Source: a virus (lineage: Duplodnaviria > Heunggongvirae > Uroviricota > Caudoviricetes). From it: DNA of 17,398 bases. Position numbers and translations under genes: made by a program. Position 1 is the stretch's first letter. Each line of letters begins with the position of its first letter. The notes under the pieces were generated by a model. It was not told the DNA's origin. It did no database searches and saw nothing but the letters and a program-made list of their open reading frames with translations. Location of the stretch: positions 1-17,398 of the IMG/VR virus record IMGVR_UViG_2778261177_000007. The stretch is one strand, 5' to 3'. This document shows positions 1 to 8,737 of the stretch, piece by piece.

Positions 1-1143
1 CTATGCTGTTTTGATATCTACGATAATCCAGTCTTTACCACGATCATCATTGTATCGGTCGGTCATTTTTCTGGATTTATGACCTAACAACTTTTGCGTA
101 TCCAGACCCTGTTCCCGATATAACCGTTCTGACAGAGATCGCTGCTCATGAAATGTGGGCGCAGTTCCTTGCTCCCATTTTATGCCACATTTTTCCCTGG
201 CCTTTTTAAAAGCCGTTGTCAGAGTATTCGCAGAAACCTGGTCTCCTCTGTTTGCTTGAGAGGTTGTGTGACGGTAATGGACCAGATATTTACTAACAAC
301 AGCATCCCTGCACTGAGATATAACTTCACGAAGGGTAATATTCAGAGCATCGCATTTCAGGTTAAGCGGAATAGCAAGTTTTGAACCGGTTTTTTCCTGA
401 GTAATGTGCAACATGTCGTCCCAGATATCAGAGAATTTCAAATTGCAGATATCGCCTAAACGTTGTCCAGTGACAAGAGCAAGTAGCATCCCGCATTTTA
501 AATAGGGCTGCCGTCTGCTTACGCTGTCAAATATTGCCTGCCATTCGGGCAGTGATAATCTTTGGCGGTTTACTCGATTTCGCGGTTGTTTTGTTGCCTG
601 CGCTGGGTTAAATCCTGGCGGAACATGTCCTGCGTGTTGTGCTTCTTTGAAGACGTCGATTAACACCATTCTCACGACTTGCGCCATCCTGTTATGACCT
701 TCAGCCTTTACAGCATCAATTATTTCGGCAATATCAAGTGCGGTAATATCCTTGAGGTGTTGCATTCCACAATGCTCACGGAAAAGACGAATGGGTTTGC
801 CTTTTTGCCGATAGGAGTTGGGTCTTAGTTCATTATGTTGCAGCCTGTCCTCCTGGATAGAAATATATTTATCAAGCCATTCTGTCACCGTAATGTCTGA
901 GCGCCTGCCTTTCATTCTTTCCAGACGCTCATTGACGCTTAATATTTGTCGGGTACGTTGTTCAGCAATAATGGTATTTGCTTCAGTAGCAACTTGTTTT
1001 GCTTCATTCTCATCAGTTCCTAAGCTATGAAAACGACCGGATAGTGGATGTTTGTATTGCCAATATACCTTTCCTGTTCGCTTATCTAATTTGCAATATA
1101 AATTGGGTATAGAGATTTTGTGAGATCGGGGTCTAGCAGCCAT
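1..1143 (-). CDS. int: Lambda-family tyrosine integrase (site-specific recombinase)
   Basis: 380-aa ORF with ATG start; N-terminal arm-binding-like region, C-terminal HxxR...LLGHK...Y catalytic signature (HEQRSLSERLY, LGHKSRKMTDRY). Overlaps upstream xis by 11 nt as in lambdoid phages. Not lambda Int itself. Stop codon sits at the window edge. Confidence 0.9.
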   Translation of the reverse strand: MAARPRSHKISIPNLYCKLDKRTGKVYWQYKHPLSGRFHSLGTDENEAKQVATEANTIIAEQRTRQILSVNERLERMKGRRSDITVTEWLDKYISIQEDRLQHNELRPNSYRQKGKPIRLFREHCGMQHLKDITALDIAEIIDAVKAEGHNRMAQVVRMVLIDVFKEAQHAGHVPPGFNPAQATKQPRNRVNRQRLSLPEWQAIFDSVSRRQPYLKCGMLLALVTGQRLGDICNLKFSDIWDDMLHITQEKTGSKLAIPLNLKCDALNITLREVISQCRDAVVSKYLVHYRHTTSQANRGDQVSANTLTTAFKKAREKCGIKWEQGTAPTFHEQRSLSERLYREQGLDTQKLLGHKSRKMTDRYNDDRGKDWIIVDIKTA

Positions 1144-1369
1144 CAGCGATTATCCGTTGGAGTTTTGGGTTTGCGTTTATTGGGAGTTGCGGTTCTGCAA
1201 GCGTTCCTACAAAACGGGAATTTCGGTCAATCATCCAGTAGCGACCAACTTTTATAGCGGGTGGGGCCATCATTTTCCCTTGCGCGTATTTTTTCAGAAC
1301 TCGCTCACTTGGTGCTAAGTCCCCAAATTCTTCTTTAGCCCAGTCCTGTAAAGTGATTAGTCGAGACAT
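1133..1369 (-). CDS. xis: Excisionase (Xis-like)
   Basis: 78-aa ORF immediately upstream of and overlapping int; strong SD (GAGGAGG) 6-7 nt before ATG; size and position typical of excisionase. Confidence 0.7.
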   Translation of the reverse strand: MSRLITLQDWAKEEFGDLAPSERVLKKYAQGKMMAPPAIKVGRYWMIDRNSRFVGTLAEPQLPINANPKLQRIIADGC

Positions 1370-1508
1370 TTGTCCTCCTCTTAGCTGTTGAGGGAGTTTG
1401 TGACCGATATATCTGACATGATATTAAGCTCATGGCAGGTACATCTCTTGACTGGTCATAGAGATAAATTTAATGCTGAGAAATGCAGTATTGAATTTAT
1501 CAATTTTT

Positions 1509-1748
1509 CTATTTCCTACGTATGGCACGTAACTTCTTAATGTGTTCTGCCGTTTCGATCTCTTCTGCTATCCGATCTGCATCAGCTTTATTCACAGGTT
1601 CAAAGTCATGATTAAAGCGGAACATGCTGGCGATACATGTTCTGCCTTTTCGGATGTAGTGAACTTTGTTGTGGGTAGAACGCAGGATTTTGCAGGGAGT
1701 GCCGTGGTGGTCGACGTACCAGGTGTTAGGAAAAATGATTCTGAACAT
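1509..1748 (-). CDS. Small prophage early-left protein of unknown function (YdaC/DUF-like)
   Basis: 79-aa ORF co-oriented with the int-xis/early-left operon; resembles small conserved proteins found next to xis in enterobacterial lambdoid prophages (recall only). Confidence 0.5.
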   Translation of the reverse strand: MFRIIFPNTWYVDHHGTPCKILRSTHNKVHYIRKGRTCIASMFRFNHDFEPVNKADADRIAEEIETAEHIKKLRAIRRK

Positions 1749-7023: not shown

Positions 7024-7109
7024 CAGGTTCGGAAATGGCGAAAGCCGGTCTGCGCGAACAGAACCGACTTTCAGGTGCAAATCGTAACACACTCATTGCG
7101 GGAGGAATT

Positions 7110-8039
7110 ATGGCAAACACTGCTGAGATATTCAATTTTCCAGTGCCGGATGAGGCACAAAAGGAGCCGCGCGTGGCAGATCTCGATGATGGTTATACGC
7201 GCATTGCAAATGAGTTGCTGGAAGCTGTGATGCTGGCCGGATTAACACAGTACCAGCTTCTGGTCTTCCTGGCTGTCATGCGCAAAACATATGGCTTTAA
7301 TAAAAAACTGGATTGGGTGAGCAACGAGCAACTTTCCGAGTTGACCGGGATATTGCCGCACAAGTGTTCTGCTGCAAAAAGTGTTCTGGTAAAGCGTGGG
7401 ATTTTTATTCAGAGCGGGCGGAATATCGGCATTAATAATGTGGTCAGTGAATGGTCAACATTACCCGAATCAGGTAAGAAAAATAAAGTTTACCTGAAAG
7501 AGGTAAATTTACCTGAATCAGGTAAGAAAAGTTTACCCAAATCAGGTAAAGACGTTTACCCGAATCAGGTAAACACAAAAGACAAACTAACAAAAGACAA
7601 TATAAAACCTTTTTCGTCCGAGAATTCTGGCGAATCCTCTGACCAGTCAGAAAACGATCTTCCTGTGGTGAAACCGGATGCTGCAATTCAGAGCGGCAGC
7701 AAGTGGGGGACAGCAGAAGACCTGACCGCCGCAGAGTGGATGTTTGACATGGTGAAGACCATCGCGCCATCAGCCAGAAAACCGAATTTTGCAGGGTGGG
7801 CTAACGATATCCGCCTGATGCGTGAACGTGACGGACGTAACCACCGCGACATGTGTGTACTGTTCCGGTGGGCATGCCAGGACAACTTCTGGTCCGGTAA
7901 CGTGCTAAGTCCGGCCAAACTCCGCGACAAGTGGACCCAACTCGAAATCAACCGTAACAAGCAACAGGCTGGCGTGACAGCCGGAAAATCAAAACTCGAC
8001 CTGACAAACACTGACTGGATTTATGGGGTGGATTTATGA
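7110..8039 (+). CDS. O: Replication initiation protein O (chimeric: divergent N-terminal iteron-binding domain, lambda-like C-terminal P-interaction domain)
   Basis: Start chosen at ATG 7110 (MANTAEIFNF..., GGGAGG SD), which aligns with the lambda O N-terminus (MTNTAKILNF...). Conserved VADLDDGY, KTYG, SEW. The C-terminal ~110 aa look near-identical to lambda O. Contains the ori iterons. ORF-track start 7020 rejected. Confidence 0.85.
   Translation: MANTAEIFNFPVPDEAQKEPRVADLDDGYTRIANELLEAVMLAGLTQYQLLVFLAVMRKTYGFNKKLDWVSNEQLSELTGILPHKCSAAKSVLVKRGIFIQSGRNIGINNVVSEWSTLPESGKKNKVYLKEVNLPESGKKSLPKSGKDVYPNQVNTKDKLTKDNIKPFSSENSGESSDQSENDLPVVKPDAAIQSGSKWGTAEDLTAAEWMFDMVKTIAPSARKPNFAGWANDIRLMRERDGRNHRDMCVLFRWACQDNFWSGNVLSPAKLRDKWTQLEINRNKQQAGVTAGKSKLDLTNTDWIYGVDL
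7461..7610. repeat. Origin of replication: five ~19-bp palindromic iterons plus an A-rich tract inside O
   Basis: Iterons TTTACC(C/T)(G/A)AATCAGGTAA(A/G) at about 7461, 7489 (degenerate), 7509, 7532 and 7556, each an internal TTTACC/GGTAAA inverted repeat, followed by CACAAAAGACAAACTAACAAAAGACAATATAAAACC. Confidence 0.75.
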
Positions 8040-8737
8040 AAAACATCGCCGCACAGATGGTTAACTTTGACCGTGAGCAGATGTGCCGGATCGCCAATAA
8101 CATGCCGGAACAGTACGACGAAAAGCCGCAGGTACAGCAGGTAGCGCAGATCATCAATGGTGTGTTCAGCCAGTTACTGGCAACTTTCCCGGCGAGCCTG
8201 GCTAACCGGGACCAGAACGAACTGAACGAAATCCGCCGCCAGTGGGTGCTGGCTTTCCGGGAAAATGGGATCACCACAATGGAACAGGTTAACGCAGGAA
8301 TGCGCGTAGCCCGTCGGCAGAATCGACCATTCCTGCCATCACCCGGGCAGTTTGTTGCCTGGTGCCGGGAAGAAACATCCGTTACCGCCGGGCTGCCAAA
8401 CGCCAGCGAGCTGGTTGATATGGTTTACGAGTATTGCCGGAAGCGTGGCCTGTATCCGGACGCAGAGTCTTATCCATGGAAATCAAACGCGCACTACTGG
8501 TTGGTTACCAACCTGTACCAGAACATGCGGGCCAATGCGTTGACTGACGCGGAATTACGGCGCAAGGCTGCCGATGAACTGGCCTGTATGACCGCGCGAA
8601 TTAACCGTGGTGAGGCGATCCCTGAACCAGTAAAACAACTTCCTGTCATGGGCGGTAGACCTCTAAATCGTGCACAGGCTCTGGCGAAGATCGCAGAAAT
8701 CAAAGCTAAGTTCGGGCTGAAAGGAGCGATGAAATAG
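8036..8737 (+). CDS. P: Replication protein P (DnaB helicase loader)
   Basis: 233-aa product recognised as near-identical to lambda P (MKNIAAQMVNFDREQM.RIANNMPEQYDEKPQVQQVAQIINGVFSQLLATFPASLANRDQNE...); ATG overlaps the O stop (ATGA). Confidence 0.95.
   Translation: MKNIAAQMVNFDREQMCRIANNMPEQYDEKPQVQQVAQIINGVFSQLLATFPASLANRDQNELNEIRRQWVLAFRENGITTMEQVNAGMRVARRQNRPFLPSPGQFVAWCREETSVTAGLPNASELVDMVYEYCRKRGLYPDAESYPWKSNAHYWLVTNLYQNMRANALTDAELRRKAADELACMTARINRGEAIPEPVKQLPVMGGRPLNRAQALAKIAEIKAKFGLKGAMK

Follow-up and report, generated by a model that had tools for sequence, protein, structure and literature searches.

The first 8737 nucleotides (nt) of a 17,398-nt stretch of viral DNA (IMG/VR record IMGVR_UViG_2778261177_000007, positions 1 to 17,398; hereafter the window) raise the question of what kind of phage can carry genes close to those of phage lambda side by side with genes that are plainly different. 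A preliminary description of this region, made from the sequence alone, had taken it for a recombinant lambdoid prophage rather than lambda itself, with recombination genes and P of lambda type joined to an integrase, an immunity region, and an O N-terminal domain of other origin. Our homology blocks, per-gene identities, and junction alignments upheld that view. We conclude, at a probability of about 0.93, that positions 1-8737 represent the early region (integration, recombination, immunity, and replication) of a lambdoid prophage of the phage 21 / 4A7 lineage, with icd-adjacent integration and with modules that would be exchangeable relative to lambda. This arrangement is already known and ordinary, and the region is not a newly arisen recombinant.

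Homology to lambda and phage 21

When we compared positions 1-8737 with lambda (NC_001416) by blastn, we found matches in exactly two blocks, the first at window 1819-4594 (lambda 30418-33193, 97.4% identity over 2777 nt) and the second at window 7573-8727 (lambda 39119-40273, 94.3% over 1155 nt), the latter holding the C-terminal part of O and P. The remainder (1-1818, 4595-7572, and 8728-8737), which amounts to ~55% of the 8.7 kilobases (kb), had no lambda DNA match. Phage 21 (OL657228) matched in three blocks, 1-1752 (98.1%), 1792-4594 (96.7%), and 7573-8727 (94.8%), and because of the first two of these the left arm is better called phage-21-like than lambda combined with something else. 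The segment 4595-7572 had no DNA match in lambda, phage 21, HK022, or Rac. Genes were assigned from a listing of open reading frames (ORFs), Pfam and NCBIfam domain searches, tblastn, and blastn (Table 1), and a 200-nt identity profile of the window was computed against seven references. The gene-by-gene BLAST against lambda, HK022, Rac, and others, and the identity plot, had both been proposed in the preliminary description; run here, they verified its module assignments.

On these comparisons the region can be described as three modules. Module A (1-4594) is a phage-21-type left arm, in which int, xis, and small genes precede exo-bet-gamS, the Red genes, which lambda, phage 21, and many relatives have in common at 96-98% DNA identity. 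Module B (4595-7572) is a distinct control module, carrying a KilR-like kil, a predicted SOS-cleavable S24 repressor with its own putative operators, a YdaS-type Cro, a YdaT/phi80-CII-type lysogeny activator, and the origin-recognition half of O with its five iterons. Module C (7573-8727) provides the lambda-type P-binding half of O, plus P. We define lambdoid phages operationally, by lambda gene order and by homology sufficient for recombination with lambda. The order int-xis-...-exo-bet-gam-kil-...-cI-cro-cII-O-P-nin is present in the ORFs and domain hits, with a ybcN/NinB-like gene at 14423-14827, and the stretches of 2777 nt (97.4%) and 1155 nt (94.3%) are of an identity able to support homologous recombination with lambda.

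At the protein level, Int matched its phage 21 counterpart at 99% amino acid (aa) identity and the lambda integrase at 35%, and Xis was 100% identical to phage 21 Xis with no match in lambda (tblastn); the two appear orthologous to those of phage 21, and we assign them to a phage 21-type integration module. An icd fragment adjoins int in both phage 21 and 4A7. The preliminary description had also set the genes at the repressor, cro, and cII positions and the O N-terminal domain apart from those of lambda, and this was borne out (cI 23% by alignment, O N-terminal domain 43%, Cro and the cII-position protein no tblastn match). The joining of non-lambda int/xis to lambda-like Red genes, which it likewise pointed out, is present in the window but is not special, being the arrangement found in phage 21. 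The TraR/DksA-type gene, whose lambda counterpart we take to be orf73, had 92% tblastn identity to a lambda stretch (30418-30839) for which the NC_001416 feature table used lists no coding sequence.

The adjacent exo, bet, and gam fit a lambda Red recombination module, with 96-99.6% aa identity to lambda Exo (4 of 226 residues differing), Bet (1 of 261), and GamS (4 of 98), and P differs from lambda P at 8 of 233 residues. The near identity to lambda claimed earlier holds for exo and bet; it was somewhat generous for P and the C-terminal part of O, which at 94% DNA identity are closely related. The ~80 nt 5' of the GamS ATG are still lambda-like, and because in-frame stop codons lie in them only GamS, and not GamL, can be made. 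Within the Red block the window agreed with lambda only at 45 sites and with phage 21 only at 32, in short alternating runs, and 37 sites were unique to the window; we therefore take the alternation as a sign that co-resident lambdoids have exchanged DNA repeatedly by homologous recombination.

The similarity of Exo, Bet, GamS, and P to the lambda proteins (96-99.6%) might suggest that the region is phage lambda itself or a laboratory hybrid (lambda imm21, imm434), merely diverged. This we consider next to impossible: more than half of the region has no DNA match in lambda, Int and cI are as distant as given above, the shared blocks are 2.6-5.7% off lambda, unlike those of laboratory hybrids, and the lambda imm21 and imm434 records have the lambda O N-terminal domain, to which that of the window is 43% identical.

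The preliminary description had further placed the junctions at module boundaries, upstream of gam and inside O, and alignments located both precisely. At the first (4594/4595, ~80 nt upstream of the GamS start), identity to lambda and phage 21 runs through the kil stop codon and the sequences are unrelated beyond it; at the second (7572/7573), lambda-like sequence (ACACAAAAGACA...) resumes inside O at the first base past the last iteron. Two junctions that it had not mentioned lie at 1819, inside the orf73/TraR-like gene, and at 8727, 10 nt before the P stop, past which an AT-rich spacer and a gene for a 1302-aa inverse autotransporter stand in place of ren. Two of the junctions fall at gene boundaries, the one at the kil stop codon and the one near the P stop.

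In a mosaic of this kind, junctions would be found where exchange is compatible with function. The N-terminal domain of O would have to travel with the iterons that it binds and the O C-terminal domain with P, and the repressor DNA-binding domain, operators, and cro would have to travel together. The junction inside O would part the P-interacting domain from the domain that recognizes the origin, together with the cognate iterons of the latter, and each half could be exchanged independently as long as it stays with its partner. Independent exchange of the O halves was reportedly established in classical lambda-phi80 and lambda-82 hybrid studies, and modular exchange of O and immunity is textbook lambdoid biology. 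Going by established lambda biology, the mosaic may have arisen by recombination between co-resident lambdoids at shared flanking sequence.

Immunity, early control, and replication genes of module B

The cI-type repressor had 41% tblastn identity to HK022 cI. Its Ala-Gly (VSAG), GDSM, and KR (VKRL) motifs align with the corresponding motifs of lambda CI, the aligned residues being Ala111-Gly112, Ser149, and Lys192. With a helix-turn-helix domain, an Ala-Gly site, and a Ser/Lys dyad, it is predicted to belong to the LexA/CI-type S24 autocleaving repressors, and because it has these autocleavage motifs induction through RecA is expected; by analogy with lambda, the prophage would be SOS inducible.

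The candidate OR region contains a 25-bp perfect palindrome, ATGGTTGTT-N7-AACAACCAT, at 6121-6145. Overlapping it, at 6135-6153, is one of exactly two copies in the window (0.01 expected) of a 19-nt element, AAAACAACYATAGTTTTAA; the other, in mirror orientation, is the OL copy AAAACAACTATAGTTTTAA at 5074-5092, which by our reading of the sequence lies on the minus strand between TTGACG (-35) and TTAAAT (-10). Both copies fall within stretches that vary relative to 4A7, each between -35-like and -10-like hexamers, with the sites pointing leftward and rightward. We infer from this that they are the best operator candidates, and the promoter assignments are of the same putative kind. That the operators differ from those of lambda, as described earlier, was corroborated, lambda-type operator sequences being absent from the control regions: a search with the lambda operator consensus gave three matches with 3 mismatches, all in coding sequence, and as many occurred in 12 of 200 shuffles.

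Alignment with 4A7 delimits the part of the region that would determine specificity. The OL region (5001-5200) is 78.5% identical, with the leader from ~5067 down conserved, and no alignment was obtained over ~5947-6482, which takes in OR, cro, and the N-terminal half of cI; identity is ~90-96% in the C-terminal half of cI and 90-98% in the flanks. Since OL, the N-terminal half of cI, OR, and cro differ with their flanks conserved, we recognize in them a classical lambdoid immunity unit.

At the cro and cII positions the predicted proteins appear to form a Cro/CII pair of the YdaS/YdaT type (Rac, CP-933P). The cro-position protein had 30% tblastn identity to Rac YdaS; the cII-position protein was 67% identical to phi80 CII over its full length and had a distant match to the CP-933P YdaT structure 8bt1 (E-value 2.4e-4). 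CP-933P YdaT has been shown to be functionally equivalent to CII, and its operator, TTGATTN6AATCAA, is located where ydaS ends or between that gene and ydaT (PMC9986795). We sought such an operator between cro and the YdaT gene and found none, the only matches nearby having 2 mismatches and lying in the OR region upstream of the cro start (6128 and 6156). A different YdaT site is expected here because the protein is only distantly related to that of CP-933P. The sole exact match to this pattern in the window is a palindrome, TTGATTATGAATAATCAA, at 14241-14258, between the esterase gene and ybcN.

Kil of the window matched the NCBIfam FtsZ inhibitor model PRK11354 (E-value 1.8e-17, under the curated cutoff) and had 41% identity to phi80 Kil and 35% to Rac KilR by tblastn; its homologue in Escherichia coli A3 is named a phage encoded cell division inhibitor in RefSeq. 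Among the ORFs of window 4795-5160, between pL and kil, there was no N, cIII, ea10, or ral. No boxB-like hairpin follows the boxA-like sequence GCTCTTTAACAA (6415-6483), and Rfam gave nothing relevant in 4500-7100, so that the window has no recognizable N-type early antiterminator with nut sites (boxA plus boxB). N-type antitermination is typical of lambdoids and is not universal, HK022 being without N. The sequence GCTCTTTAACAA, which we take to be identical to the E. coli rrn boxA, is present in phages PhiR34_1 and PhiR47_2 and in A3, and had no exact match in the fetched stretches of 4A7, lambda, phage 21, phi80, HK022, and Rac. The left operon of the window keeps terminator-like hairpins at 2687-2665 (the counterpart of lambda tL3) and at 2090-2076, before xis/int, and the N-less module 4595-7572 occurs in viable phages, joined to a phage-21/lambda-type left operon with terminator-like hairpins.

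This common phage lineage could conceivably use an undescribed early antitermination device, the candidates being the rrn-type boxA located past cro, with no partners other than host Nus factors, and the conserved RNA of the pL leader (4880-5031). We think this improbable, as checks for a put-like RNA, an Arg-rich ORF, and Rfam families found no positive evidence for it. HK022 putL was located by means of published primers (PMC9378689). A put-type antiterminator RNA in the pL leader was not supported, the local alignment with putL scoring 27, a value reached by 104 of 1000 dinucleotide shuffles and hence at chance level. The leader folds with a z-score of -1.7, its first stem is missing in a third immunity type (L044, L047, and L074), and its variation among relatives is too small for covariation testing. 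A 31-residue Arg-rich ORF on the minus strand (4903-4998, TTG start), which includes ...RGVKRTRERRCDQ... (KRTRERRCDQ), recalls the arginine-rich motif of lambda N. As a hidden N-like protein it was not supported, since both TAG and CAG are found at the position of its stop across 84 related sequences and its frame is shifted in at least 5 loci; in most related IMG/VR loci the TAG is replaced by CAG, with the frame continuing into kil, and no Shine-Dalgarno sequence was seen by eye before it. It is probably not a gene. Just upstream of kil, 60 nt of the stretch 4855-4915 are 84% identical to phi80 32416-32475, which lies between tL1A and tL1B downstream of phi80 N, and the same stretch is 86% identical to Enterobacter phages.

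The origin half of O completes the module. The N-terminal 184 residues of O had 43% and the C-terminal 155 residues 92% tblastn identity to lambda O. Sixteen phage records have an N-terminal domain at least 90% identical to this one, and the next best of the matches listed were Salmonella SEN34 (54%), P22 gp18 (50%), and lambda O (43%); a search by sequence found no solved structure matching O. With a Phage_rep_O domain, iterons within O followed by an A-rich lambda-homologous stretch, and P adjacent, the genes are assigned to a lambda O/P-type replication module.

Relatives, cargo slot, and integrity of this copy

The whole of 1-8737 was found in one colinear piece at 99.0-99.1% identity in E. 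coli A3 (99.1%), A26, and H22, and 1-8727 is present at 98.1-98.3% in many further E. coli strains. Of 5426 complete E. coli genomes, 1197 (about a fifth) have 80% or more of the region at a single place, and 1495 have 80% or more of the 4595-7572 module at a single place. Colinear copies at 98-99% came from bats, marsupials, humans, wastewater, and sediment. Among phages, PhiR47_2 (PV340567) carries 1-8727 at 97.7% with one 1.4-kb cargo insertion, PhiR34_1 (PV340559) carries 1518-8727 in one piece at 97.8%, and 4A7, 4C10, 1W, 3W, and Perceval cover 91-93%; the 4A7 and PhiR34_1 records are complete phage genomes.

These relatives bear on two other explanations. The window might be an assembly chimera joining reads of two prophages from one genome, since an E. 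coli genome has several lambdoid prophages with shared segments (median of 6 matching places) and repeats can misjoin contigs. However, many complete chromosomes that were assembled independently, and genomes of isolated phages as well, show these joints at identical nucleotide positions, an argument that covers 1-8737 and not the joint at 14824 described below, and for the former we set the chance of a chimera close to nil. A stronger reading of the preliminary description is that of a unique, recent recombinant between a phage-21-like and an unrelated prophage in this host. No record reaches 99.5% identity across the entire region, A3 coming closest at 99.1%, which leaves some room for it; but with colinear copies at 98-99% from such diverse sources, and with the module combination in about a fifth of complete genomes, we hold it to be very improbable. 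Because the combination is so widespread at 98-99%, the recombination events predate this host. The preliminary description had named uniform identity to a single known phage as a finding that would count against it, and this is nearly what we observed: the region remains mosaic relative to lambda, and any claim of novelty falls because identity to known phages and prophages is near-uniform.

Four points limit this account. Homology to related prophages ends at 14824, the end of ybcN, and is followed by an isrC/IS3-family stretch, so that the copy may be defective. The comparisons made do not allow the direction and order of the exchanges to be deduced. The window starts at the int stop codon and shows no attachment site, and its prophage status rests on related genomes. 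Finally, neither an N gene nor boxB was found, which leaves the window short of one canonical lambdoid feature. In none of the comparisons did we find evidence contradicting the mosaic description. Because prophage homology stops at 14824 and a 334-aa ORF, isrC, and an IS3-family element come next, this copy of the prophage is probably truncated or rearranged there. The Q antiterminator, lysis cassette, and head and tail genes are outside the window.

The 'rex position' downstream of cI (5269-5389) is empty in the window, and in relatives 1.4-4 kb of cargo is inserted at ~5269-5348. PhiR47_2 has GevT/GevA there, PhiR5_1 and some E. coli strains encode a HipA-like kinase, and 4A7 has genes for an ASCH protein and a hypothetical one; other cargo is also seen. 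Of the IMG/VR loci, 80 encode the same Kil as the window without a difference; colinearity with the window extends past kil to the cI stop in 13 of them, and in 62 the match breaks off at 5268-5348, as would fit cargo downstream of cI. Searching the literature for GevT/GevA yielded unrelated papers only. The slot holds toxin-antitoxin or defence-like cargo in relatives and nothing in this copy.

Beyond P, the inverse autotransporter gene contains a 357-bp tandem duplication (10296-11001, 2 copies, 98%); the protein is present in E. coli A3-type prophages and had no match in the phage collection. The esterase gene that follows it is common to 4A7, PhiR47_2, and relatives at 97.5%.

Table 1. Features assigned in the window, in order of position.
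Feature	Coordinates	Strand	Assignment
int	1-1143	-	Tyrosine integrase of phage 21 (icd-integrating) type, 380 aa, intact; Pfam Arm-DNA-bind_1 and Phage_integrase
xis	1133-1369	-	Excisionase of phage 21 type; Pfam Exc
DUF4222 gene	1509-1748	-	Pfam
TraR/DksA-type zinc-finger gene	1796-2014	-	Pfam
Lambda homology block 1	1819-4594		orf73/TraR 3' end, orf61, orf63, orf60a, exo, bet, GamS
orf61, orf63 (DUF1382), orf60a (DUF1317) homologues	2113-2751	-	94-98% aa identity to lambda (tblastn); Pfam DUF1382
exo	2748-3428	-	Red module
bet	3425-4210	-	Red module; RecT-like annealase
gam	4216-4512	-	Short GamS form only; Pfam Gam
kil-like cell-division inhibitor	4588-4794	-	68 aa, non-lambda
pL leader and candidate OL/pL region	4795-5160	-	
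Terminator-like hairpin	5251-5268	-	Downstream of cI
cI-type repressor	5390-6079 (ORF open to 6145)	-	Pfam HTH_3 and Peptidase_S24; probably 229 aa
Candidate OR/pR/pRM region	6080-6183		
cro-position gene	6184-6414	+	76 aa, YdaS/P22-Cro family; Pfam YdaS_toxin 62.2 bits (cutoff 30)
boxA-like GCTCTTTAACAA	6428-6439	+	14 nt past cro stop, nutR position; only exact match in window
cII-position gene	6484-7023	+	179 aa, YdaT family; Pfam YdaT_toxin 103.7 bits (cutoff 21)
O replication initiator	7020-8039	+	339 aa; Pfam Phage_rep_O
Iterons TTACCYGAATCAGGTAA, five copies	7461-7572	+	Inside O; starts 7461, 7490, 7509, 7533, 7556; 0.06 expected by chance
P, DnaB-loader type	8036-8737	+	233 aa; Pfam Phage_lambda_P
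Inverse autotransporter	8987-12895		1302 aa, IAT_beta and Big_1/Invasin_D3 repeats; in lambda's ren position
Alpha/beta hydrolase, BD-FAE/esterase family	12932-13975	-	Transcribed against early-right operon
334-aa ORF	14864-15868		No family hits
isrC small RNA	15890-16012	-	135 bits; sole gathering-level Rfam hit in whole window
IS3-family element	orfA 16332-16631; orfB from 16628		orfB runs off window

Comparison with known lambdoid phages

The locus has little significance beyond correct annotation, and is a clean example of textbook lambdoid modularity, displaying an immunity specificity unit, an O N-terminal domain kept with its iterons, and an O C-terminal domain kept with P. It places the prophage in a lineage that is very common in E. 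coli and has icd as its integration site. Two points of annotation follow from the gene positions: proteins named 'YdaS/YdaT toxin' occupy the Cro and CII positions here, and the gene called cI is that of an SOS-type S24 repressor.

The closest prophage, that of A3 at icd (NZ_CP028771), matches 1-14824 at 98.9%, with a homologous int 114 bp downstream of icd. Like PhiR47_2 and PhiR34_1, it has the genes, operator candidates, iterons, and junctions of the window; the annotation of A3 gives int as a pseudogene, interrupted by an internal stop, and the cII-position gene as frameshifted, whereas both are intact in the window. PhiR47_2 differs by the 1.4-kb GevT/GevA cargo downstream of cI and PhiR34_1 by its integrase, and both have ren-emrE-ybcK after P where the window has the inverse autotransporter. 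Phage 4A7 (NC_049946, genus Bievrevirus) resembles the window at 1-5348 (97.4%), at 6483-8727 (97.9%), and from the esterase gene to ybcN (12928-14824, 97.5%), and has the same icd fragment by int, but it differs in immunity specificity (OL, OR, cro, and the N-terminal half of cI) and has ren-emrE-ybcK after P.

Phage 21 shares int, of the same integrase type, with xis, DUF4222, orf61-orf63-orf60a, exo, bet, gamS, the C-terminal part of O, and P at 94.8-98.1% DNA identity. In place of 4595-7572 it has kil-cIII-ea10-ral-N, immunity 21, a lambda-type cII, and the lambda O N-terminal domain with its iterons, and it has one extra small gene at window ~1752-1792. Phi80 differs in having an N gene, its cI is 24% identical to that of the window, and its iterons (TTCCCGAAAACGGGAA-type) are similar in design and different in sequence. 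RacR, of 158 aa (477 nt), had no tblastn match to the window cI, and it is not known to have an S24 domain. With lambda the window shares gene order and an origin architecture in which palindromic iterons inside O are followed by an A/T-rich stretch, the four ATCCCTCAAAACGAGGGA-type iterons of lambda aligning in register with the five TTACCYGAATCAGGTAA iterons of the window and differing in sequence. Int/xis, the b-region genes, kil, cIII, N/nut, rex, cI, the operators, cro, cII, the O N-terminal domain, and the iterons of lambda are different in the window or absent from it.

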